Virus record (IMG/VR): IMGVR_UViG_3300045988_130114
Location: 12,650-76,649 of that record
Source of the DNA: a virus
Length of the DNA: 64,000 nucleotides
Direction: 5' to 3' (one strand)
The notes under the pieces were generated by a model, which was given only the letters and a program-made list of their open reading frames with translations, made no database searches and was not told where the DNA came from. Shown here one piece after another: positions 3,492-56,909 of this stretch. A program made the position numbers and the translations under genes. How positions within the stretch are numbered: the stretch's first letter is position 1; each line of letters begins with the position of its first letter.

Positions 3492-3827
3492 ATGAGTGAA
3501 ACCGAAATTTTGAAAGATCGAATAGAGAGCTTACAAGCTGCTCTTGTTGCAAAGGAAGAAACTCACAAAATAGAGATCTGTAAGCTAATAGAAATAGATT
3601 TGAATGATACTGTGAGTGTAGAATTAACAGAATGGGGAGCCACATATCTTAATGCGACGAATGCATTTAAGAAAATTGCTACTCCGCAGAAATGCCATTA
3701 TAAGACTGACTATAAAGCGGGTGATTGTTTACAAAACCAACTTTGGCAGTTAATATTGGAGTTTAAAGATGGGATTAGGTTTGATAAAGAGAAGGCTTTT
3801 AATAAGTTGACAAAAGTAATTAATTAA
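3492..3827 (+). CDS. hypothetical protein
   Basis: 111-aa ORF. Confidence 0.45.
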   Translation: MSETEILKDRIESLQAALVAKEETHKIEICKLIEIDLNDTVSVELTEWGATYLNATNAFKKIATPQKCHYKTDYKAGDCLQNQLWQLILEFKDGIRFDKEKAFNKLTKVIN

Positions 3828-4192: not shown

Positions 4193-4217
4193 TCATAACT
4201 AACTAGAAAGAAATCAA

Positions 4218-4694
4218 ATGAAAATATTAGTAAGTTTTTCCGGTGGTAAGGATTCGCAAGCCTGCTTGATCCAAGCTGCCAAACAATACGGAACCGATAA
4301 GATAGAAGCGGTATTCTGCGATACAGGCTGGGAACATCCCGATACCTATCAGCATATAACAGACGTTTGCACACAGATGGGCGTTAAATTGACAACGCTA
4401 AAATCAAAGTATGACTTCGTTTCTTTAGCAGTCTATAAAAAGCGGTTTCCCTCTACAAAAGCGAGATTTTGCACAGAAGAATTAAAGATGAAACCTATGA
4501 TTGATTATGTGCTATCCCTAAAGGATAGTTGCATTATCATTCAAGGGATCAGGGCGTCTGAAAGTGCATCACGAGCAAAGATGGAGCCTGAATGTATGTA
4601 CTTTAAAGAGTATTTCAAGAGAGTTCAGTATGTAGATAAAAAAGGGAGAGTTAAAGAGAAATGGGCGCAAGCTACCGTAGAAAAGAGGTCTTAG
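4218..4694 (+). CDS. PAPS reductase-like (N-type ATP pyrophosphatase) protein, N-terminal part of a split gene
   Basis: MKILVSFSGGKDSQACL carries the SGGxDS PP-loop motif. The ORF ends at 4694 while the expected C-terminal half continues in the -1 frame. Confidence 0.65.
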   Translation: MKILVSFSGGKDSQACLIQAAKQYGTDKIEAVFCDTGWEHPDTYQHITDVCTQMGVKLTTLKSKYDFVSLAVYKKRFPSTKARFCTEELKMKPMIDYVLSLKDSCIIIQGIRASESASRAKMEPECMYFKEYFKRVQYVDKKGRVKEKWAQATVEKRS

Positions 4695-5098
4695 AGTGGT
4701 GTAAACAATTTGATGCGTCTGTTAGTCGTCCCATTTTTGATAAATCGGCTCAATGGGTGATTGATTGCATACTCGATGCTGGGCAGCAACCAAATCCATT
4801 ATACAGAAAGGGGTGTTCCCGCGTTGGCTGTTATCCTTGCATCATGTGTCGGCAAATGGAAGTTGTCATATTGATGAAAGACGAACCAATGAAAATACGG
4901 CTGTTAGATGCTGAACATAAAATTGGAAGATCTTTTTTCTCTCCTGACTACATCCCTAAATATGCTTGTGCAAATGGTAAATATCCAATGGTTGAAGATG
5001 TGTTTAGGTATATAAGTGATAAAAATGCGACATTGGATATGTTCGAGCCTGAAGGCGGTTATGCTTGTATGAGCCTATTTCATGGGCTTTGCGAATAG
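4661..5098 (+). CDS. PAPS reductase-like protein, C-terminal part of a split gene
   Basis: NPLYRKGCSRVGCYPCIMC is the typical C-terminal Cys motif of this family. The frame is open only from 4655. Confidence 0.55.
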   Translation: MGASYRRKEVLEWCKQFDASVSRPIFDKSAQWVIDCILDAGQQPNPLYRKGCSRVGCYPCIMCRQMEVVILMKDEPMKIRLLDAEHKIGRSFFSPDYIPKYACANGKYPMVEDVFRYISDKNATLDMFEPEGGYACMSLFHGLCE

Positions 5099-5132
5099 AA
5101 GTTTAATTCAAAACAAAACAGAAAGGAATTAA

Positions 5133-5978
5133 ATGAAGATGCAATCTAAGATAGATTATTCCATAGCCTTACTTCGTAAATGCGAACAGATGGCACTTGA
5201 TTATGACCCGGAGGATGGCTTTTACTTAGCGTTCTCCGGTGGCAAGGATAGCCAAGTCCTTTATCACCTTGCGAAGATGGCAGGAGTAAAATTTAAGGCT
5301 CACATGAACCTTACGAGCATCGATCCACCCGAAGTTATCCGCTTTGTAAAACGGAACTACCCGGATGTGGAATTGATTAAACCAAAGATGTCTATCTATG
5401 ATATGGCTTTAAAAAAACACTTATTACCTACAAGAACAATCCGTTGGTGTTGCGCTGAATATAAAGAGATGTCCGGTGCTGGCAAGGTTACCTTGATTGG
5501 CATTAGAAAAGCAGAAAGCGTCCGGCGCTCTAAGCGTGAAGAGATTGAAATAAGCGGTCACAAATTTAGCGGCAACTTCGACCAATTCTCTGAACACAAA
5601 GAAAAGATGGTTACTTGCGTGGGAGGAAAGGATAAGATACTTGTTTCTCCGATAATTCACTGGACTGATAGGGACGTATGGCAGTTTTTGAATGGGAATA
5701 GCATAGAGCATTGCTCGTTGTATGATGAAGGCTATAAGCGCATCGGATGTATTCTCTGCCCAATGTCTAACTATAAGCAGAAGTTAAAAGATTATCAGCG
5801 CTTCCCCCATGTGAAACGTAAATGGATTCAGACCATACAAAAGTTGATTGATGCCGAATATGTCAACCACAACTTTACCGATGCAGAGTTTGGCTTTTAT
5901 TGGTGGATAAGCGATAAAGGTTTTGACCAATATTATGCAGACGAAGTACTGCAACAGAAAATAGAGTTTAACGTATAA
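5133..5978 (+). CDS. PAPS reductase-like protein (second paralogue)
   Basis: FSGGKDSQVLYHL PP-loop and C-terminal YKRIGCILCPM motif. Confidence 0.7.
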   Translation: MKMQSKIDYSIALLRKCEQMALDYDPEDGFYLAFSGGKDSQVLYHLAKMAGVKFKAHMNLTSIDPPEVIRFVKRNYPDVELIKPKMSIYDMALKKHLLPTRTIRWCCAEYKEMSGAGKVTLIGIRKAESVRRSKREEIEISGHKFSGNFDQFSEHKEKMVTCVGGKDKILVSPIIHWTDRDVWQFLNGNSIEHCSLYDEGYKRIGCILCPMSNYKQKLKDYQRFPHVKRKWIQTIQKLIDAEYVNHNFTDAEFGFYWWISDKGFDQYYADEVLQQKIEFNV

Positions 5979-7889: not shown

Positions 7890-7927
7890 AAGTGACACTT
7901 TATATGTCATATTTTGTATCTTTACAC
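7890..7927 (+). promoter_or_regulatory. phage promoter-family copy 1 (dyad GTGACA-N-TGTCA plus -7-like box TATCTTTA)
   Basis: aagtgacactttatatgtcatattttgtatctttacacc aligns with four other copies in the window. Confidence 0.45.
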
Positions 7928-7948
7928 CATAAAAATAAAAAAAGAGCA

Positions 7949-8353
7949 ATGAAAATTTACACAAGTTATTTCGGTAATAGCCGAAAATTAAAAGAAGCAG
8001 GAATTAAAATTATTTGCGTAGCTATTGGACGGCCAAGATTTATTAGTGGAGTACCACAAATGGTTAATGTGGCTCCAACAAGGTATATGATAAGTGCCGC
8101 ATGTTCCCATGATGAGTATCTTAGATTATACAACAATATTCTTGAAAGTCAAGATGCGAAGAAGGTGGTGGAGCAAATAAAGACATTAAGTGATGGCCAA
8201 GATGTTGCTCTATGCTGCTATGAGAAACCAGGTGATTTCTGCCATCGCCACATACTTGCAAAATGGCTTACCGAAAAGACTGGCATTGAAATCAAAGAGT
8301 TTGGAGTTGTTGAAAAGAAAGAACCTAAGTATGAACAAGCAAGTTTGTTCTAA
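7949..8353 (+). CDS. DUF488 domain protein
   Basis: MKIYTSYFGN...VALCCYEKPGDFCHRHILAKWL matches the DUF488 pattern. ATG preceded by AGAGCAATG. Confidence 0.55.
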   Translation: MKIYTSYFGNSRKLKEAGIKIICVAIGRPRFISGVPQMVNVAPTRYMISAACSHDEYLRLYNNILESQDAKKVVEQIKTLSDGQDVALCCYEKPGDFCHRHILAKWLTEKTGIEIKEFGVVEKKEPKYEQASLF

Positions 8354-8439
8354 AGATATGTGTGAGGCTTTTTATGGTTATGGATACACACGTCAATTGA
8401 AAACGGAAACCATTGGCAGCTTGGAATAGACAAGCAAAA

Positions 8440-8512
8440 GGTTGAATGGCGAAGTGATTAACGCAACGGTCCGCAAAACCGTTATTCGTGGGTTTGAATC
8501 CCACTTCAACCT
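8440..8512 (+). tRNA. tRNA-like gene, anticodon GCA (Cys), non-canonical C33 and TTTGAAT T-loop
   Basis: Hand fold: acceptor GGTTGAA/TTCAACC, anticodon stem ACGGT/ACCGT, loop CCGCAAA, T arm GTGGG-TTTGAAT-CCCAC. Confidence 0.55.
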
Positions 8513-8588
8513 CAAAGATAGAAATAACAACCGAAGTACAAGGCGATACTGTGGATTTTCTAATAAACGTTTTACAGACAGCCATATT

Positions 8589-8659
8589 GCGGAAATAGCT
8601 CATTGGTCAGAGCGTTGGCATTCCAGCCAAAGAGTGGGGTTCGATTCCCTGTTTCCGCT
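8589..8659 (+). tRNA. tRNA-like gene, Gly(UCC)-like with a 6-nt anticodon loop
   Basis: Hand fold: acceptor GCGGAAA/TTTCCGC, D arm GCTC-ATTGGTCA-GAGC, perfect anticodon stem TTGGC/GCCAA enclosing only ATTCCA, T loop TTCGATT. Confidence 0.5.
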
Positions 8660-8776
8660 CGAATGTCGTTCAAGCTGGCTGGTTGATTGGTATTATGGTA
8701 GATGTGCATAGTTCGATTTTATGCGTTACTCTGGTATCGGTCAATCTTACAGCGTGGGAAGACATGCAAATTTGTT

Positions 8777-8943
8777 GGTGGTATGGCGTAATTGGTATAC
8801 GCTAATCAAGATGTAAGGTGCAAAATTCCAGGATAACCGTTAATAACCAAACCGGAAACCTGCGAGACATCTTAGGAATGACTGAATTAAAAATCAGAAA
8901 GCCGCAAAAACTCCACCTGCAGGTTCGAATCCTGCTGCCACCA
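8777..8943 (+). ncRNA. over-length (167 nt) tRNA-like RNA gene
   Basis: 7-bp acceptor GGTGGTA/TGCCACC, D arm GCGT-AATTGGTAT-ACGC and T arm GCAGG-TTCGAAT-CCTGC. About 115 nt lie between the D and T arms. Confidence 0.4.
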
Positions 8944-8947
8944 CTAA

Positions 8948-9136
8948 GAGATAAAATGGTCATAGGGCGCTAAGACTAAATGAACGGAAATTCTAAGTGT
9001 ACATAAGAATGGATGTCATCAAGACCGGTGCTGTTAGTAACAGGTTGAGTAGTTTAAAGATCGTAGGATAGCCAATCTACGGACGAAAGCGAGAAAGCAG
9101 ACGATACTTGTGCAGGTTCGACTCCTGCTTATCTCT
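8948..9136 (+). ncRNA. over-length (189 nt) tRNA-like RNA gene
   Basis: 7-bp acceptor GAGATAA/TTATCTC and T arm GCAGG-TTCGACT-CCTGC. A large structured insert lies between the 5' arm and the T arm. Confidence 0.35.
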
Positions 9137-9245: not shown

Positions 9246-10547
9246 ATGTTCCAAGGAACGACACCACCTGAAGTAAAACTGCTCCTTCAAGATATAATGA
9301 AAGGCGTAGAAAAGAAAGATGTTTTTATCGGATGTTCCGGTAATTTCACGACCGACAAAATTATGTCCAACATGGGATATACTGTACATTCCAATGATGT
9401 AAGCCTATATTCTAAGCTAATTTCTGATCTGCTGCTTGACACAAATACAGATATTGAAGTTGTAAATCCTGAATTACGTCTGGTTTTTGATACTTGGAAA
9501 GATACAAGATATAAAAATCTTGTTCAGGTAATGTTTGCCATGAGAGTATCAGGCTTTCATCAAAGAAAGAATGATTATCAGGAGGAAATGTTCAATTCGT
9601 TTATAGAGCAGGCTGACATTTATTATCACAATACCATATCGAAATTAGAAAAGGGTGCTTTGAATTTTAATATAAGCAGTTTCTTTTATGGCGATTTTTT
9701 TGACTTCCTAAAAAGTAAAAAAGGTAAGGGGATAGGTATTGCTTTTCCTCCCACTTATAAAGGAGGATATGAGAAGATGTTTAGCTATGTAGAAGATAGT
9801 TTTAGATATGTTCATGCTCCCTATAATGTATTTGACCCCAAAGAAGGTGGGGTGATGTTTAAATGTCTTCTTGAGAATGATGAAAACATCATCTATTCTG
9901 ATAGATATTTCCAGGAAATAAACGACTTCCTTGTTGGTAAGATAAACTTGGGGCCTGGTAAGAATCCGATATACACTTATTCTAGTGTAAAGCGGGATAA
10001 GCATTATTACATTGAACGTGATAAAAATATAAAGCCATCATGTATTCATATTTTGCCAATGGATTATGAATTTACAGATAGCACAGAAATATCAGCAAAG
10101 ATATGCCCAGTTAGTGATGTGAACTACTATAAAGCATTTTACATGGCAAATAAGGTTAACTATACAACTGGTGGGGACTTGGGATTGGTATTCATGGCTG
10201 ATGGAAAAGCGTTCGGTTTTTCTTCTTTTAGCAAAAAACTTTCTACTCTTGAGCAGATTTTTATGCGAAGCGATTTTGTTGTAAACTCAAATACTCAGAG
10301 ATTGAGTAAATTATTGATCATGCTTGTTAAGTCTCATAATGTAAGAATGCTGATTGCCCGAAAAATGGCTAACTACTACGATGGAGTGAAGACTACCGTG
10401 TACACAACAAGCCCAATTTCAATGAAATATAGAGGAGTATTTGATTTAGAACGCCGAGATGAAGGCAAGCTAATGTATTCTGCTAATTTTTTAGATGATT
10501 CATTAAAGGATTTATATAGATTATGGTTGAAAAAATACAAGAAGTGA
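9246..10547 (+). CDS. putative Dam/D12-like DNA adenine methyltransferase with C-terminal extension
   Basis: DVFIGCSGNFT...VHSNDVSLYSKLI (motif I region-like) and IAFPPTYKGGY (DPPY-like). The motif reading is weak and unsearched. Confidence 0.4.
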   Translation: MFQGTTPPEVKLLLQDIMKGVEKKDVFIGCSGNFTTDKIMSNMGYTVHSNDVSLYSKLISDLLLDTNTDIEVVNPELRLVFDTWKDTRYKNLVQVMFAMRVSGFHQRKNDYQEEMFNSFIEQADIYYHNTISKLEKGALNFNISSFFYGDFFDFLKSKKGKGIGIAFPPTYKGGYEKMFSYVEDSFRYVHAPYNVFDPKEGGVMFKCLLENDENIIYSDRYFQEINDFLVGKINLGPGKNPIYTYSSVKRDKHYYIERDKNIKPSCIHILPMDYEFTDSTEISAKICPVSDVNYYKAFYMANKVNYTTGGDLGLVFMADGKAFGFSSFSKKLSTLEQIFMRSDFVVNSNTQRLSKLLIMLVKSHNVRMLIARKMANYYDGVKTTVYTTSPISMKYRGVFDLERRDEGKLMYSANFLDDSLKDLYRLWLKKYKK

Positions 10548-11287
10548 AAGATGTTCATCTTATTCAGGGGAAACTGGATGATGTAAACAAGTTGATTGCT
10601 CCATATAAGTTAGCATATGTAAGCCCTATAAACGATTGTGTTCCGTTGGAGAAGAATGCTCACTATATGGAAAAAAGCACACTAGATAGACTAACAGCAA
10701 ATGTGGCTGAAGACGGTTTTTTATCTCAGCTCCCGTTTGCAATGAAACGAAATGACGGTAAATATCTCATTTTGTCGGGAAATCATCGCTTAAAAGCTGC
10801 TATTAAAGCTAAGTTGGAATATATTCTAATCTTGTATATTGAAGAGGTTGATAAAGATAAGCAGATTGCCTATGTGCTTAGTCATAATGCTTTAGTAGGC
10901 AAAGATGATGCTCAGATGCTTAAGGAGATTTATAGCGAGATGCGCACTATTGAAGCAAGAGAGTTTCCTGGTCTTAACGGCATTCAATTTATTGATACGG
11001 ATAAGATTCCCACGGTCTCTATTAATGATGGGGATATAGAGCTTACCGAAATGAAGTTCTTGTTTACTGAAAGCAGGAGCAATGATGTCAAAGCTGTTCT
11101 AGCGGAACTAGAAAAACAGAAAATATCTGCAAATAGTTCGATAGTTGTCGGCTCCTATGAAGAATTTATTAAGGTAGCTACAGAGGTTAAGAAAAAATTT
11201 AATATAAAAAGTAATACGGTGGCTTTTGCACGTATGATTGATATTTGCAAAGCCTTTTTGCTTGAACTGAAAGAAGAGGAGGTATAA
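10523..11287 (+). CDS. ParB N-terminal (ParB/Srx nuclease-like) domain protein
   Basis: YLILSGNHRLKAAIKA carries the GxHR motif. Located upstream of the terminase genes. Confidence 0.6.
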   Translation: MVEKIQEVKDVHLIQGKLDDVNKLIAPYKLAYVSPINDCVPLEKNAHYMEKSTLDRLTANVAEDGFLSQLPFAMKRNDGKYLILSGNHRLKAAIKAKLEYILILYIEEVDKDKQIAYVLSHNALVGKDDAQMLKEIYSEMRTIEAREFPGLNGIQFIDTDKIPTVSINDGDIELTEMKFLFTESRSNDVKAVLAELEKQKISANSSIVVGSYEEFIKVATEVKKKFNIKSNTVAFARMIDICKAFLLELKEEEV

Positions 11288-11780: not shown

Positions 11781-13305
11781 AAAAAAGAAACTCATAAGTG
11801 AAATTATAGCGTATTGGTCGAAGGATTGGAATAAATTTGTCCGTGATGCATTATGCGCAAGATTAGATCGTGAGCAGCAAGCTATTATTGAGTCTGTCCA
11901 ACATAACCCCATGACTGCTGTTGCAAGTGGAACTGCTCGTGGAAAAGATTTTGTTGCGGCCTGTGCTTCGTTGTGTTTTATGTATCTTACTCCTAGATTT
12001 AATGAAAAAGGTGTGCTTGTTGGGAATACCAAGGTGGCCATGACAGCACCAACAGGGAGGCAAGTGAAAAATATTATGACTCCTGAAATCAGAAGGTTGA
12101 TTCGTGCAGCAAGGGCAAAGTTTCCTTTTTGTTGTCCAGGCAGATTGGTTGCTGATGACATAAGAACGGATTATGAAGAATGGTTTTTGACAGGATTTAA
12201 AGCAAATGACAACGCAACTGAATCATGGTCGGGATTTCATGCAGCAAATACCATGTTTGTTATCACGGAGGCATCAGGTATATCCGAAATTGTTTATAAT
12301 GCGATAGAAGGTAACTTACAGGGAAATTCTCGGATGCTCATAGTGTTTAATCCTAATATTACTACTGGATATGCATCTAGAGCCATGAAATCAGAACGTT
12401 TTGCTAAGTTTAGGCTTAGTTCTCTTAATGCGGAGAATGTGGTAAAAAAACAAGTTATAATTCCAGGTCAAGTAGATTATGAATGGGTAAAAGACAAAGT
12501 AATAAATTGGTGCTCTCCCATTCAGCAAACGGACTTTAATGAGGGAGAAGGCGATTTCAAATGGGAAGGTAGCCTATACCGACCTAATGATTTATTTCGA
12601 GTTAAGGTACTTGGTATGTTCCCAAAAGTTTCTGAAGATGTACTTATACCTTATGAATGGATAGAGATAGCAAACAGGAATTGGCAAGAATTACAAGCAA
12701 ACGGTTTCATTCCTGTTAAATCTTGCAAGTTAGGGGTTGACGTTGCCGGTATGGGACGAGACAATAGTGTGCTTTGTCCGAGATATGGAAACTATATTAC
12801 TCAATTTGAAGTGCATCAATCTGCTGGACGTGCGGATCACATGCATGTAGTAGGTATGACAATACCATATTTAAAGAAGAAGGGAGCAAAAGCATTTATT
12901 GATACGATAGGAGAGGGTGCAGGTGTCTATTCTCGTTTGTTGGAGGAAGAATTTACAAATGCTTTTTCATGTAAATATTCAGAAGGTGCGGATGGATTGC
13001 ATGATATTACCGGAGAATATGAATTTGCCAATATGCGAGCATATTTGTATTGGGCTTTGCGTGATTGGCTCAATCCTAAAAATGGATTTGGTGCAGCTTT
13101 ACCCCCATGTGATCAGTTGATGGAAGAAGCGACTGAAACTAAATGGAAGTTTCTTAGTAATGGAAAGATTATCATTGAGGCTAAAGAAGACATCAAAAAA
13201 CGTATCAAGCGTTCTCCTGACTATATGGATGCATTAGCGAATACATTCTATCCTAGGGATTACAGCTTTATTAGCGATGAAGAGCTGCTCAAAGATTTTT
13301 TGTAG
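11764..13305 (+). CDS. terL: terminase large subunit
   Basis: 513 aa, placed after TerS and before the head genes. ATPase-like N-terminus (VASGTARGKDF) and a nuclease-sized C-terminus. Confidence 0.8.
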   Translation: MVTKDEKKKLISEIIAYWSKDWNKFVRDALCARLDREQQAIIESVQHNPMTAVASGTARGKDFVAACASLCFMYLTPRFNEKGVLVGNTKVAMTAPTGRQVKNIMTPEIRRLIRAARAKFPFCCPGRLVADDIRTDYEEWFLTGFKANDNATESWSGFHAANTMFVITEASGISEIVYNAIEGNLQGNSRMLIVFNPNITTGYASRAMKSERFAKFRLSSLNAENVVKKQVIIPGQVDYEWVKDKVINWCSPIQQTDFNEGEGDFKWEGSLYRPNDLFRVKVLGMFPKVSEDVLIPYEWIEIANRNWQELQANGFIPVKSCKLGVDVAGMGRDNSVLCPRYGNYITQFEVHQSAGRADHMHVVGMTIPYLKKKGAKAFIDTIGEGAGVYSRLLEEEFTNAFSCKYSEGADGLHDITGEYEFANMRAYLYWALRDWLNPKNGFGAALPPCDQLMEEATETKWKFLSNGKIIIEAKEDIKKRIKRSPDYMDALANTFYPRDYSFISDEELLKDFL

Positions 13306-25302: not shown

Positions 25303-25502
25303 TTTACAATAGATATAGTTTAAACCTTTGTGCATCTGCTTTATAGATGCACACTTGCGGATTAAGCACACACAGGCGTGCGTCGCTCTACCAGAGTGAA
25401 GGGGATGGTGCAGGTCCATCAGTCCGCTCTAGGCTTTTTGTTCGAATCTGAAATAGGTGGTCTGTGAAGATAGCCAATTTGTTTTCTAAAAGGTAATAGT
25501 AT

Positions 25503-26328: not shown

Positions 26329-27201
26329 TTAGGAAACTATTTCTCCAGTATCCTTATTTAATATCAGATGGTATTTCTTTTTTTCTCCTATTTTAGTAGT
26401 GGCTTCAATGTCTAATATTACGTTATCTCCATCTAATGAATATGTGGATTTGTTGACTCTTATCTCTTCATCGGTGATGGGGACCTGCCAAATTAGATAT
26501 TTATCATATCTATACATTGAAATGTCAACACACACAACCATATTGTCATAGATGTATACCATATTATTGTAAGATATAGGTATGTAATTATTCCTTTCAA
26601 TTTCTTTAACCCATCTTTCAGCGCCTGGATCATTATTCCCAATCGTCTGCTTTAAATCACTATCCAATACTCCAATTTCATAAATTCCTGTTCTTGCAGT
26701 TTTATAAATGGCAATGTATTCTCCATACCAATCTGCTATTGCTTCCGGATAGAAGATCGTTTCTTCAAAACCAGAATAATATTCTTTGTCAAAATATTCT
26801 TTTTCAACAACCTTCCCATCTTTTATTTTCAAGATAAATTTATGTGGGTGATAAGCTATATCTGCGTATAAACTTACCAATATATAGAGATAATCATCCT
26901 TTTTCAAGGCACTTTGAAGGAAACACCCTTTGACTATGTATTCTCTCTTATCTCCAAACCCAAGATCATGGGTATAATTTTCTGCTTTATCTTTGATGGT
27001 AAACACCTTGTTCCCTGATTCATCAATAGCCTCTATATAGTAATCTCCTTCAAAGATATAAGCTTGTAGTTTTAGATCATCTATCGGGATAGCACTATCG
27101 ATTTGGTATTTTGGAAGATCTGGTTCATCTATAGGACTTTCATTTGAACTACAACTTGTTAATAGAATTATTGCTATGATAAAAAATGAAATCTTCTTCA
27201 T
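26329..27201 (-). CDS. lipoprotein (moron; superinfection-exclusion candidate)
   Basis: Signal peptide with lipobox MKKISFFIIAIILLTSCSS. AT-rich and on the opposite strand, inside the tail operon. Confidence 0.6.
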   Translation of the reverse strand: MKKISFFIIAIILLTSCSSNESPIDEPDLPKYQIDSAIPIDDLKLQAYIFEGDYYIEAIDESGNKVFTIKDKAENYTHDLGFGDKREYIVKGCFLQSALKKDDYLYILVSLYADIAYHPHKFILKIKDGKVVEKEYFDKEYYSGFEETIFYPEAIADWYGEYIAIYKTARTGIYEIGVLDSDLKQTIGNNDPGAERWVKEIERNNYIPISYNNMVYIYDNMVVCVDISMYRYDKYLIWQVPITDEEIRVNKSTYSLDGDNVILDIEATTKIGEKKKYHLILNKDTGEIVS

Positions 27202-27214
27202 AATTTGTTGGTTA

Positions 27215-28336
27215 TTATTCTCTCATTGCTATTTTAAGCGATTCTTCAAGTCTATCCGCATATTTGAATATGTCATCTATGCTATCAATTTGAATCCAGT
27301 CGCAACTTTTGTAGTTATCTACTGGTATTCCTATTTGCTTCTTCCTAGTTCCAATAGAAATACGACATATCCAATACCATTGGCTGTTGTCTAAGCTTAT
27401 AACGAAGTAACTTTTATAGTCTGTATAGGTGATTCGTGAAGCATCTACATTACGTCTAAGTATGCTTCTCACAATGTTATAAGCATCCATTTCCTCTTGT
27501 GTAGTGACTATCCCTGCTTCCTTGTCCATATAAACTACTCCTTCAGGTAGTTTGTTTTCTGCATTTTCTTTGGGGAGATTAGCTAAATTACTAGAAAAAT
27601 TAGTTGTGTCTTCGACCTGTTCGTCATTTTTCATTGCTGTATTAAGCCTTTCAGCTATGATATCATTTATTACAATAGACATTGACTTTTTTACAAGTGG
27701 GGTAAACATTTCAACTACCTTTTGTGTGATTTGCCCAGTTGTATATATTTGTTTTGCAAAGAATCTAACAAAATCAGATGTAGGAGATTGTATTTCTTTG
27801 TTGAAAATTTCCTTTATTTCCGTTGTGTATTTTAATTCATTTGCTGTGCTAAGAACATTGTCTTCATTGTAATAAGATTTGTGGAACTTTTTTAGTTGTT
27901 CTATGTCTGCATCAGATAGATCTAGCATATTTACAACTAAGAATGGCCTTTCATCCATGATATTAACCTTCTCCAAATCAGTATAGAAACGGTATTCTAT
28001 GCCATTGGTGAGAACTCCAAAGCGAGACTTAGAAGCTACGAAATATTTTTGTAGTTGGGTGTCATGCAGATTCAAGTCCTGCTTGCAATGCTTACACTCT
28101 ATAAGAAGTATCGGGTTTTCGTCCTTCATTATAGCATAGTCAATCTTTTCTCCCTTTTTTCTGATTAAGTCACAGTCCATTTCCGGAACAACTTCGAAAG
28201 GATTAAAGACGTCATACCCTAAAGAAGCTATCAATGGCATTATGAAAGCATTTTTTGTGGCTTCTTCTGTAGATATGCTATCTTTTTGTTTTTTTATGCG
28301 GTCTGACAGTTGTAAAATTTGATCCTTGAAATCCAT
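27215..28336 (-). CDS. HsdR N-terminal-like PD-(D/E)xK nuclease-domain protein
   Basis: N-terminus ...TEEATKNAFIMPLIASLGYD...KIDYAIMKDENPILLIECKH...FGVLTNGIEYRFY resembles the type I restriction HsdR_N_2 domain. About 220 further residues are of unknown function. Confidence 0.55.
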   Translation of the reverse strand: MDFKDQILQLSDRIKKQKDSISTEEATKNAFIMPLIASLGYDVFNPFEVVPEMDCDLIRKKGEKIDYAIMKDENPILLIECKHCKQDLNLHDTQLQKYFVASKSRFGVLTNGIEYRFYTDLEKVNIMDERPFLVVNMLDLSDADIEQLKKFHKSYYNEDNVLSTANELKYTTEIKEIFNKEIQSPTSDFVRFFAKQIYTTGQITQKVVEMFTPLVKKSMSIVINDIIAERLNTAMKNDEQVEDTTNFSSNLANLPKENAENKLPEGVVYMDKEAGIVTTQEEMDAYNIVRSILRRNVDASRITYTDYKSYFVISLDNSQWYWICRISIGTRKKQIGIPVDNYKSCDWIQIDSIDDIFKYADRLEESLKIAMRE

Positions 28337-49966: not shown

Positions 49967-50334
49967 TACCGGCACTATCTTCACAGACCGTTTCCGGTAT
50001 GAAAAGTTTAAGTTGTATTTATATAACAATTTCCATTGGAAAAAGGTTTATTAAGAAAGGAGGACAAAATGAGACATTAATTGATTATTAAGCACTAAGT
50101 TATCCGGTAAAGTAGAAGGCCGGTTATCATAACAAATGTAACTCTTTTGGGGGATAGAGTAAAAAAGAACCCCCAACACTGAAAGTTGACGCCAATCGAA
50201 CTTTTTAGCATACCAAAAGCATACATAGGTAGTGTCGGGGGTATAATATCCTTAACATTCCTATATATGCTTTTGTTTATTTGGTACTGAGTACGATTGG
50301 CAAAGGCAAAAGTACAACAAAAAATTAAATTACT

Positions 50335-55438: not shown

Positions 55439-55461
55439 AAGGCAGCTTATTAGGCTGCCTT
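55439..55461 (-). terminator. integrase terminator hairpin
   Basis: AAGGCAGC/GCTGCCTT stem, with a T-run after it on the minus strand. Confidence 0.55.
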
Positions 55462-56711
55462 TATGTTTTCATCAACATTATATCTGCTTTCATCTCTATA
55501 TACTCTTTATATTTGCTTGGATTATTTATATAGTCAATAACTCTTTTAATAGCTATTTCCGCTTGCTTAAATCTCGTTTTAGCATAGTACCTGACAATGC
55601 CTCTGCTTTTATCTGAATGAGCAAGGCAGTAGTCTATCACATTGTCTGGTATTCCTAAGTCAAATGCGTATTGAGCAAATGACTTTCTGGCAGAATAAAA
55701 TACAACTTTTTCCTTTATTCCTACCTCCTTTGCAAGCTCAGAAATAGACCTGCATATGTATCTTGAGAAATTGTGATAAGAAAACTTATATCCGAAATCC
55801 AATTTCTTTGTTTTGTTGTTTATCCATTTGTCTATTATTTCTTTTGCTGGATCAGTAATAGGAAGTAAGCAATGTTGTTCTGTTTCAGTTTTAAGCTTCG
55901 TTTTAATTCTTACATAATCTACTTTATCGCTAGTAAAACGAGTATTCATCAAATCTATTAAGTTCATTCCACCGAGATAAAAAGAAAGCATAAAAACATC
56001 CCTTGCCACAATATACTTTTTTTCTTTGGGATTACTATTTCTTATCATATTAAGACTTTCTAAGGCTATATCTACTTCTTTAATTGGAGATTTAGGGATT
56101 TTCTTATAAGCAAACGGATGTATTTCGTATCTCACAGAACCAGAGTTTATATTTCTATTGATCACCGCTTTTATTTGAGACATCATCATTCCTATTGTTG
56201 TGTTCCCTATGTTTTTTTTCGTTTTCAGATATCTTGAGAATCCGTCAATAATATTGGGTGTTATATCTGACATGGGTATTTCTCCTCTTGTAAATTCTGT
56301 GAAGTATCTGCAGCTCCTTTCAATCAATACTGCATAACTTTCCCTACCTTCGGAATTTAGTTCATCTATAAATAAGGAGCACGCTTTTTGATATGTAATA
56401 TTCTGTTTGTCTTTTATTTTTGAGTCAGAAACTAATATATCTTTGATTTGTTTGCAAGAATAAAGAGATTGATGTTTTATTTCATCAAGTTTATTCTGCA
56501 TATCATTCATCATGTTTCTTAGTTTTGAATTTATAATTGAAGCATCCGGACGTTTTGTTACCTGTCCATCCTTAAATTGCGAAAGGTTGTCGATTATAAA
56601 ACGTGTTACAATATAACATGTTTCCTTCTTATGACATACAGCTATTCTTATTTTATGCCTTCCGTCCTTTAAAACTTTTGCTTTGAAGATTGTAAGTTTA
56701 ATAGTTGCCAT
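55461..56711 (-). CDS. int: tyrosine site-specific integrase (Bacteroides phage-integrase type)
   Basis: N-terminal arm-binding-like MATIKLTIFKAKVLKDGRHKIRIAV. Catalytic-region motifs ARKSFAQY, CLAHS and IVRYY. Confidence 0.9.
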   Translation of the reverse strand: MATIKLTIFKAKVLKDGRHKIRIAVCHKKETCYIVTRFIIDNLSQFKDGQVTKRPDASIINSKLRNMMNDMQNKLDEIKHQSLYSCKQIKDILVSDSKIKDKQNITYQKACSLFIDELNSEGRESYAVLIERSCRYFTEFTRGEIPMSDITPNIIDGFSRYLKTKKNIGNTTIGMMMSQIKAVINRNINSGSVRYEIHPFAYKKIPKSPIKEVDIALESLNMIRNSNPKEKKYIVARDVFMLSFYLGGMNLIDLMNTRFTSDKVDYVRIKTKLKTETEQHCLLPITDPAKEIIDKWINNKTKKLDFGYKFSYHNFSRYICRSISELAKEVGIKEKVVFYSARKSFAQYAFDLGIPDNVIDYCLAHSDKSRGIVRYYAKTRFKQAEIAIKRVIDYINNPSKYKEYIEMKADIMLMKT

Positions 56712-56769: not shown

Positions 56770-56867
56770 ATTTTTCCTTTTTTTTAATCTATAAATTGAA
56801 GATCTCGTAAATGAAAACGGAAACCTAAGTTGTTAAATACAAGATAATTAATAGGTTCCCGTTTTAG

Positions 56868-56909
56868 AGCCGCTAGCCAGACTTGAACTGGCGACCTACG
56901 CGTTACGAA
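56868..56909 (-). other. attP-like core: 3' portion of a tRNA-Thr(CGT) gene
   Basis: The reverse complement reads TTCGTAA (anticodon loop), CGCGT, AGGTC, GCCAG-TTCAAGT-CTGGC, TAGCGGC, T. The 5' anticodon-stem strand is absent, so only the 3' part is present. Confidence 0.6.

Follow-up and report, generated by a model that had tools for sequence, protein, structure and literature searches.

Two tandem tRNA-like genes and their relatives

The stretch analysed here, referred to as the window, comprises 64,000 nt of viral DNA (positions 12,650–76,649 of IMG/VR record IMGVR_UViG_3300045988_130114). It is a temperate phage of gut Bacteroidales, with genes for replication, terminase, portal, integrase and RecT. 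Two tandem genes for over-length tRNA-like RNAs, El1 (8777–8943) and El2 (8948–9136), lie 4 nt apart on the plus strand. A preliminary description had reported this pair together with its acceptor and T arms; both arms were read directly in each element, and their pairing is upheld by covariation in related phages for both families. El1 and El2 have a 7-bp covarying acceptor stem with a discriminator, a T loop of the form TTCRANY and a D arm with G18G19, but they lack the remaining canonical feature of a tRNA, a 5-bp anticodon stem with a 7-nt loop placed one nucleotide past the D stem. The two elements represent two covarying families, and a shared frame, exchangeable inserts and phased promoters are likewise seen.

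Relatives were collected by pattern searches. An exact 23-mer of the El1 insert matched 45 IMG/VR contigs, and two looser patterns recovered further, more diverged El1 copies. A pattern for the El2 D arm matched at least 116 contigs, with 40 complete distinct sequences among the matches listed, and a pattern consisting only of the El1 acceptor 5' strand and D arm also matched at least 116 contigs, with 62 distinct sequences among the matches listed. Across these three scans, elements of the El1/El2 kind occur on well over 100 contigs in total, a larger set than the preliminary description had suggested. A stricter detector returned 66 distinct elements, which fall into 23 insert clusters of 39–169 nt. 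One genome scan revealed copies in Bacteroides and Parabacteroides genomes and metagenome-assembled genomes (MAGs), none of which is called by ARAGORN; Parabacteroides segnis BX2 and Parabacteroides sp. AM08-6 are among the carriers. In INPHARED, the sole match to El1 was MT838892, an unannotated fecal scaffold whose insert is 88% identical and whose acceptor and T arm are different, and no match to El2 was found in the INPHARED phage records. No description of a frame-plus-insert tRNA-like family was found in Rfam 15 or in the literature searched by topic and by exact sequence strings.

Folds of El1 and El2 and the missing anticodon arm

Covariation was scored as the percentage of alignment cells that are paired, compared with the value after sliding the 3' partner, together with the number of pairs changed on both sides and shuffled controls. 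For El1 and its relatives (alignment A2, 23 distinct sequences), 94.8% of cells are paired versus 30–44% with the partner slid, 17 pairs are changed on both sides, and the observed pairing value was reached by 0 of 500 shuffles. The corresponding values for El2 (alignment A3, 21 sequences) are 98.8% versus 32–49%, with 14 pairs changed on both sides. Thermodynamic folding gave a z of -2.75 for El1 and of only -0.48, which is not unusual, for El2. The features of both folds are collected in Table 1.

Table 1 Features of El1, El2 and the adjoining RNA genes (window coordinates; pairing values refer to A2 for El1 and A3 for El2)
Feature	Position	Strand	Sequence and remarks
tRNA-Cys	8440–8513		Normal tRNA upstream of El1
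Odd tRNA	8589–8660		Gly identity set G1-C72, C2-G71, G3-C70, U73; anticodon-like UCC
El1 leader hairpin	8752–8767	+	GCGTG-GGAAGA-CATGC; followed by AAATTTGTT, then G1 of El1
El1	8777–8943	+	167-nt tRNA-Leu-like RNA gene carrying the type A insert
El1 acceptor stem	8777–8783 / 8936–8942	+	GGTGGTA/TGCCACC; 6 Watson-Crick pairs and one U.G; discriminator A at 8943
El1 D arm	8786–8802	+	GCGT-AATTGGTAT-ACGC; tRNA-Leu type (A14, A15, G18G19, A20a; columns invariant)
Linker after El1 D stem	8803–8808	+	TAATCA; invariant in 23 sequences; final A begins H1
El1 domain at anticodon-arm position	8808–8873	+	Helices H1, H2 and H3
El1 H1	8808–8814 / 8867–8873	+	AAGATGT/ACATCTT; 100% of cells paired, 2 pairs changed on both sides
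GGTG in H1/H2 bulge	8817–8820	+	Candidate pseudoknot partner of CACC 8914–8917
El1 H2	8826–8832 / 8859–8866	+	TTC-CAGG/CCTG-C-GAG, C8863 bulged; 99.4% paired, 3 pairs changed on both sides
El1 H3	8837–8839 / 8853–8855	+	CCG/CGG; 98.6% paired, 1 pair changed on both sides (C-G or A-U)
El1 clamp enclosing H4	8875–8876 / 8902–8903 (8875–8903)	+	GG/CC
El1 hairpin H4	8882–8897	+	CTGA-ATTAAAAA-TCAG; 2 pairs changed on both sides
El1 A/C-rich tail	8904–8918	+	GCAAAAACTCCACCT; conserved; last base is the U preceding the T stem
El1 T arm	8919–8935	+	GCAGG-TTCGAAT-CCTGC; 98.2% paired, 2 of 5 pairs changed on both sides
Spacer	8944–8947	+	CTAA; 4 nt between El1 and El2
El2	8948–9136	+	189-nt tRNA-like RNA gene, second family
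El2 acceptor stem	8948–8954 / 9129–9135	+	GAGATAA/TTATCTC; 7 Watson-Crick pairs; discriminator T at 9136
El2 D arm	8957–8978	+	TGGTC-ATAGGGCGCTAA-GACTA; invariant; tested pairs 8958–8961/8974–8977 100% paired, no variation
El2 extended arm at anticodon-arm position	8980–9019	+	Helix b, GGAA/TGGA internal loop, hairpin a
El2 helix b	8980–8985 / 9015–9019	+	ATGA(A)C/GTCAT; pair varies C-G, U-A, U.G
El2 hairpin a	8990–8994 / 9006–9010	+	ATTCT/AGAAT; 2 pairs changed on both sides
Apical loop of hairpin a	8995–9005	+	AAGTGTACATA; 11 nt; contains palindrome TGTACA (8998–9003)
El2 swappable domain	9031–9100	+	Closed by helix c, CTGT 9031–9034 / GCAG 9097–9100
El2 inner hairpin	9062–9081	+	CGTAGG-ATAGCCAA-TCTACG; inside the helix c domain
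El2 T arm	9112–9128	+	GCAGG-TTCGACT-CCTGC; T stem 100% paired, 3 pairs changed on both sides

In El1, double changes affect six of the seven acceptor pairs, and the D arm noted in the preliminary description is present. The two outer helices that it had placed between the D and T arms, AAGATGT/ACATCTT and CTGA...TCAG, covary and correspond to H1 and H4; three relatives carry the H1 variant AGTATGT/ACATACT. Its inner pairings AGGT/ACCT and TTCCAGG/CCGGAA failed, being 77% paired with no double change and no better than shuffles. The covarying helices at this place are H2, whose central pair is G-C, U-A or A-U across A2, and H3. The linker TAATCA is found in four other insert types as well. Pairing of AATCA (positions 27–31) with a downstream TGATT as an anticodon stem was tried and rejected, being seen by eye in the L001 type only and showing no covariation.

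The GGUG of the H1/H2 bulge is paired with CAC(C/U) of the tail in 98.9% of cells, with G-C/G-U variation only and no double change. By eye, these two strands match in position a closing helix of other insert types (GATAGG/CCTATC or GAGTGG/CCACTC). A pseudoknot between the H1/H2 bulge and the tail 5' of the T arm is probable for El1. The H4 loop of the relatives reads YUUAAAA(A) or AUAGCCAA, and CCGCAAAAAC is invariant in all of them but one (L205: AAAGAC). Unpaired bases that are invariant or nearly so include TAATCA, GGTG, GATAAC and CCGCAAAAAC. Since the helices covary and many unpaired bases hardly vary, the inserts are taken to be functional.

In El2, helix b begins one to two bases past the D stem, where an anticodon stem would be expected to start. 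The ATTCT/AGAAT and CGTAG/CTACG helices of the preliminary description stand up to covariation in A3. Its CTGTT/AACAG does not, being 63% paired; CTGT 9031–9034 pairs instead with GCAG 9097–9100 to form helix c, which is 100% paired with three of four pairs changed on both sides. Relatives swap what lies within helix c for at least three different modules, and the AUAGCCAA hairpin is therefore dispensable. The palindrome at the tip of hairpin a varies to TGCGCA and GCGCGC, and one variant, TGTAGA, is broken. We take this loop to resemble the HIV-1 dimerisation loop AAGCGCGCA; it may at most hint at a kissing-loop dimer site. The discriminator in El2 relatives is U or A.

Searches with tRNA models agree with the absence of a canonical anticodon arm, which the preliminary description had also been unable to place. 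ARAGORN, with or without introns, calls neither element, and allowing introns of 0–300 nt yields only a spurious low-score call on them. Neither is reported by Rfam at the gathering threshold; at E<=10 the only matches are of T-arm fragments to tmRNA models at 9–10 bits, with no clean match to a described intron or RNA family. Full-length matches to the Rfam tRNA model RF00005 were obtained for seven related elements of six insert types, at 31–42 bits compared with a gathering score of 29; of the six Infernal alignments shown, the anticodon arm is mostly or wholly deleted in four and unpaired in a fifth (L240). The candidate anticodon loops of the window, in H4 and its El2 counterpart, are 8 nt long (AUUAAAAA in El1, AUAGCCAA in El2) and displaced by 70–80 nt. 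Where the anticodon would be, insert type L309 has a hairpin with the tetraloop GCGC. In other insert types, palindromic tetraloops are about as frequent as expected by chance and were not used as evidence.

The Leu-type frame, its inserts and their genomic setting

The frame GGTGGTA...TACCACC carries most of at least 23 unrelated insert clusters, and the El1 insert (type A) sits in eight different frames. No insert-free allele of the frame was found among the 62 distinct phage sequences listed or in 185,579 species genomes, and no normal tRNA-Leu was found among the 62 same-frame sequences. Frame and insert each evolve under purifying selection, with covariation, and recombine independently of one another. 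The earlier suggestion of a tRNA mimic, perhaps a decoy against defences that target tRNAs, or of a tRNA-scaffolded RNA fits these data.

The frame is of tRNA-Leu type. A73 is present in 62 of 66 frames and a U before the T stem in 65 of 66, and the identity features for LeuRS (A73, A15-U48, G18G19, A20a and the D/T-loop tertiary pairs) are found in the sequences of El1 and its superfamily. Among the insert types read by eye, most have a helix that ends 2–3 nt 5' of the T stem, as a class II variable arm would. The identity set matched by El1 is that of E. coli, in which tRNA-Leu lacking both the anticodon and the variable arm is still charged (PMC9976931), and deletion of the anticodon stem-loop lowers the affinity of Aquifex LeuRS only 2.5-fold (PMC2377443). 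On these sequence features, El1 may possibly be leucylated. El2 differs in its D arm, and its position 73 is U or A.

Two relatives, L237 (~3502–3655) and L332 (~4200–4420), hold a nested tRNA-like T arm within their inserts (GAAGG-TTCGAAT-CCTTC; GGTGGGTTCGAGTCCCC). The source of L332 is a Chloroflexota MAG; the frame therefore extends beyond Bacteroidales. In another insert (L228 3393–3578, L247, L280 and L297), a G run of 7, 8, 9 or 10 is found depending on the contig, either a real length variation or a homopolymer sequencing error.

Upstream regions of relatives (137 distinct) were examined for promoter signals. The exact box TAnnTTTG, which we take to be the consensus of the Bacteroides -7 promoter box, lies 50–59 nt upstream of G1 in 32 of its 42 occurrences. 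The 45-nt leaders of the same 137 relatives have a median minimum free energy (MFE) of -14.8 kcal/mol versus -6.7 kcal/mol when shuffled. At the position of the El1 leader hairpin, L066 has GCGTG/CACGC. The MFE fold of 8661–8776, however, pairs 8752–8767 with 8663–8676 and not as a local hairpin. The true tRNA-Cys of the window has the same kind of leader hairpin (8419–8435) plus an A run, and a hairpin with an A-rich run precedes tRNA-Cys (8419–8439), El1 (8752–8776) and most relatives. Read by eye in one type, the L001-type element is followed by a hairpin with a U tract that resembles an intrinsic terminator. Wherever a Leu-type element lies 5' of El2, the spacer is 4 nt (35 of 35 cases); El2 is more often found alone, behind its own leader, than after a Leu-type element.

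Many relatives share the 12-mer TCTGTGAAGATA as the loop of the leader hairpin. It recurs exactly at window positions 25461–25472 (+) and 49976–49987 (-), with about 0.01 occurrences expected for a random 12-mer, and may be a regulatory motif.

The odd tRNA upstream has a 6-nt anticodon loop, AUUCCA; it is called 'tRNA-???' by ARAGORN and scores 54 bits with the Rfam tRNA model. The spacer between it and El1 (8661–8776) gives a long hairpin on folding (MFE -40.3 kcal/mol, z -4.2), in which the apical loop GUUCGAU is T-loop-like, and at this position the relative L345 has a proper T arm, GAAAGG-TTCGATT-CCTTTC. The spacer may represent a further tRNA-like element that has degenerated.

The tRNA island is flanked (4218–5978, 7892–8353 and 9246–11287) by split PAPS-reductase/QueC-like open reading frames (ORFs), DUF488, a fusion of DAM-like and phage GNAT domains, and a ParB-like nuclease; this module looks like DNA modification. 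Elsewhere in the window, a tRNA 3' half (56862–56900, -), with T arm GCCAG-TTCAAGT-CTGGC and acceptor strand TAGCGGC, adjoins the integrase gene (55461–56711, -) and is likely the attP core for integration into a tRNA gene. Two minus-strand genes at 26329–28336 lie within the plus-strand structural module, one with an HSDR_N restriction-endonuclease-like domain, and are probably moron or defence cargo.

Possible functions and comparison with known systems

We tentatively favour the reading that El1 and El2 are non-decoding scaffold RNAs processed as tRNAs, of which the inserted domains would be the functional part; they would possibly be leucylated and possibly take part in phage–host conflict. 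The frame keeps what the maturation machinery reads, namely an acceptor stem of 7 bp with its discriminator, together with a T arm and a D arm whose G18G19 forms the elbow with the T loop. RNase P cleavage, 3' trimming and CCA addition would presumably follow, giving tRNA-like stability. In place of the anticodon arm stands a larger fold that is conserved. That of El1 has three helices and probably forms a pseudoknot with the tail preceding the T arm, and that of El2 is an extended arm with a palindromic loop at its tip. A further module occupies the variable-arm position. In such an RNA the inserted domain would do the work and the tRNA frame would present it.

The inserts might bind or titrate a factor of the host or of a rival phage, for example one that recognises class II tRNAs, although this is a guess. 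A role in conflict is suggested because inserts swap between identical frames and diversify fast in temperate Bacteroidales phages. A precedent for conflict over class II tRNAs is offered by Septu and retron-Eco7, which cut tRNA-Tyr within its variable loop, with phage tRNAs serving as resistant supplements or decoys (PMC13096335).

Several points weigh against the scaffold reading. The part assigned to conflict would be a guess from insert diversity and analogy, and the scaffold idea is silent on what any insert binds. Among 138 contexts, no protein gene is consistently adjacent to the elements, the most frequent neighbour being NinG (46 of 138). Because the discriminator of El2 varies between U and A, charging cannot be general. 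Finally, the YUUAAAA loop of H4 in about half of the El1 family matches the Leu frame, and a decoding role for El1 is therefore possible.

Such a role would make the elements expanded tRNAs that still decode: El1 would correspond to a tRNA-Leu(UAA) with H4 as its anticodon arm and a 77-nt domain between the D arm and H4, El2 would be tRNA-Gly(GCC)-like, and the 8-nt loops would serve for four-base reading or for frameshifting. Among the 23 distinct El1 relatives, 12 have UUUAAAA or CUUAAAA as the H4 loop, in keeping with the Leu frame; we take the former to be the anticodon loop of E. coli tRNA-Leu(UAA), and the latter to keep its U33-UAA-A37A38 pattern. The H4 stems covary, and the window El2 has U73 and a loop containing GCC. 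The window copies themselves, however, have the 8-nt loops, in four El1 relatives a Leu frame is combined with the El2-type loop AUAGCCAA, and other modules take the place of the El2 hairpin AUARCCAA in 6 of 21 aligned variants, the El2 discriminator being U or A. H4 is also only 4 bp long, 70–80 nt from the D stem and 20–30 nt from the T stem, and most other insert types have no candidate anticodon hairpin. We regard decoding as unlikely. In two relatives, L093 (877–1038, -) and L203 (4510–4675), the H4 loops CUUUAAA and UUUUAAA would give the anticodon UUA (ochre-suppressor-like) and not UAA. Intron-containing tRNA genes of an unusual kind, raised in the preliminary description, would have their extra RNA removed by a new self-splicing or protein-dependent route, and the presence of one insert in different frames does resemble intron mobility. 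Nested T arms lie within the inserts of L237 and L332, and Lak megaphages of Prevotella are reported to carry 'enigmatic introns' in tRNAs, one itself tRNA-like (PMC6784885). The lack of any insert-free allele in the sequences and genomes scanned argues against this route, as do the at least 23 unrelated inserts, which cannot all be one ribozyme class, and the lack of any Rfam intron or ribozyme match even at E<=10. Excision of the insert yields no product with a cloverleaf and a canonical anticodon arm, most types would be left without such an arm, and the intron mode of ARAGORN gives nothing sensible. To our knowledge, moreover, bacteria have no tRNA splicing endonuclease (EndA), the enzyme that cuts the bulge-helix-bulge motif of archaeal- or eukaryal-type tRNA introns, and the hosts here are Bacteroidales. 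Splicing is quite unlikely in our view, and group I introns, which the preliminary description had considered too long to fit, are excluded: no hit to the core (P1–P9, usually >=200 nt) was obtained, the extra material (about 77–110 nt) is of the wrong size and does not lie within an anticodon loop, and no intron-less allele was found in the sets scanned.

Another set of explanations places the function at the RNA ends or in base pairing. The LeuRS of the host could attach leucine to El1-type RNAs, which would then work off the decoding path by way of this charged end, either rescuing or tagging like a small tmRNA or donating Leu privately, with the insert picking the partner; we give this no better chance than splicing. 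More specifically, El1 might be like a small tmRNA, in which a tRNA-like domain goes together with a pseudoknot and with a short reading frame, or be an orthogonal Leu donor for a non-ribosomal transferase, which is more doubtful than any of the preceding proposals. The conserved Leu identity set would suit this, as would a large domain that exits the core at or near the variable-arm position; helix 2 of tmRNA exits the core likewise in tmRNA–SmpB structures. A frame in El1, GCA AAA TTC CAG GAT AAC CGT TAA TAA (8820–8846), starts beside the pseudoknot strand and stops in the H3 loop, and by eye 20 of the 23 relatives in A2 stop at codon 8 or 9. Changes in this seven-codon 'frame', however, are compensated in RNA helices and show no third-position enrichment, the stop is lost in L166 and L050, and the first codon is GCA or GAA. 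The tmRNA models of ARAGORN and Rfam match the T arm only, the D stem is full, unlike that of tmRNA, and G3.U70 is absent, pair 3-70 being U-A, A-U or G-C (it is scored as unpaired in five L001-type rows, in which the acceptor stem is one register off in A2). The gene with DAM-like and GNAT domains adjoins elements in only 3 of 138 contexts. Antisense or immunity RNAs processed by RNase P, like C4 of P1/P7 or CI of P4, with variable loops that pair with phage transcripts and set immunity specificity, are improbable, if less so than the small tmRNA. The phages are temperate, as seen from the integrase and prophage copies, and a tRNA-like frame with hypervariable inserts suits diversification of specificity. 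For 66 elements, however, the longest complementary match to the flanking +-4 kb has a median of 10 nt versus 9.4 nt when shuffled, a result compatible with short pairings of 6–8 nt or with host targets; El1 and El2 compared with the whole window are likewise no better than shuffled, an inverted-repeat scan revealed nothing involving the elements, and Rfam gave no C4 match. Decaying tRNA pseudogenes, or a chance resemblance without function, might explain why standard tRNA finders miss El1 and El2 and why the folding energy of El2 is ordinary. The strong covariation of frame and inserts, the well over 100 contigs and the phased promoter box in relatives make this scarcely credible. Taken together, the spliced-intron, decoding-tRNA, tmRNA-like and antisense readings are weaker than the scaffold reading.

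If the inserts are effectors, as the scaffold reading proposes, the family would amount to a large natural library in which RNA modules are displayed on a tRNA scaffold, and phage–host conflict would gain a new layer. If the RNAs are charged, the list of cellular uses of aminoacyl-RNA would become longer, and if El1-type RNAs act through a leucylated end, a functional class would be added to the aminoacylated RNAs, one that is widespread in the virome of the human gut. Among temperate phages of Bacteroides and Parabacteroides, two genera dominant in the human gut, the genes are abundant, and standard annotation overlooks them; phage 'tRNA islands' thus hold genes that tRNA finders skip.

Known tRNA-like non-coding RNAs include tmRNA, YrlA, C4 and mascRNA. 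As El1 may also do, tmRNA (SsrA) has a chargeable tRNA-like domain formed from both ends, no anticodon, and a large pseudoknotted domain that leaves the core by the T arm. The topology is similar, but the pseudoknot helix of El1 has no double change, and El1 differs in lacking G3.U70, in its full D stem, in size (167–189 nt for the elements versus about 350) and in the absence of a convincing tag frame. The C4 RNAs of P1/P7 and the CI RNA of P4 are small RNAs matured by RNase P from tRNA-like precursors, whose variable loops set the immunity specificity of temperate phages; they are about 70–77 nt long, have their cis targets beside the RNA gene and belong to Proteobacteria. El1 and El2 differ from them in having no above-chance target complementarity and no Rfam match. 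YrlA carries its tRNA-like module internally and builds the Ro-binding stem from the ends of the RNA, whereas the ends of El1 and El2 form the acceptor stem, and no Rfam hit was obtained. What is shared with YrlA is a tRNA-like module in a non-coding RNA that is also found in phages (PMC4201824). No Rsr/TROVE gene is present among the annotated frequent neighbour families of the elements.

The over-length tRNA genes of Lak megaphages are likewise from Bacteroidales phages, with highly conserved extra sequence and one tRNA-like insert; compared by description only, they differ in that tRNAscan-SE in eukaryotic mode types an anticodon and an anticodon-loop intron in them, whereas El1 and El2 have no such arm (PMC6784885). 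With class II and minimal tRNA-Leu, El1 shares A73, A14, A15, G18G19, A20a, the U that precedes the T stem and the T loop (PMC9976931, PMC2377443), but it has no canonical anticodon arm, and its D and T arms are 116 nt apart compared with about 32 nt in ordinary class II tRNA-Leu. The non-coding RNA arrays of UG27 reverse transcriptases resemble the elements in their diverse sequence and conserved structure, their pseudoknotted units of ~149–167 nt and their occurrence in Bacteroidota prophages; these units are hairpin-based, are not described as tRNA-like and lie beside a reverse transcriptase and two accessory genes (bioRxiv 10.64898/2026.09.22.753630). No reverse transcriptase was found among the annotated ORFs of the window, part of which were scanned, or among the frequent neighbour families, and we therefore see no link to the UG27 arrays.

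The closest system in its working is the engineered tRNA scaffold of Ponchon and Dardel, in which an arbitrary structured RNA takes the place of the anticodon arm, with the acceptor, D and T arms left to ensure that the product is processed and stable (PMC3753655). That scaffold is a laboratory design, whereas El1 and El2 are natural, with a Leu-type class II frame in El1. They carry another module where the variable arm would be, and in El1 a pseudoknot probably joins the two modules. The El1/El2 family is a very large, apparently undescribed set of tRNA-like chimeras with domains swapped between phages, and what appears to be new in it is one conserved tRNA frame with dozens of interchangeable structured domains.

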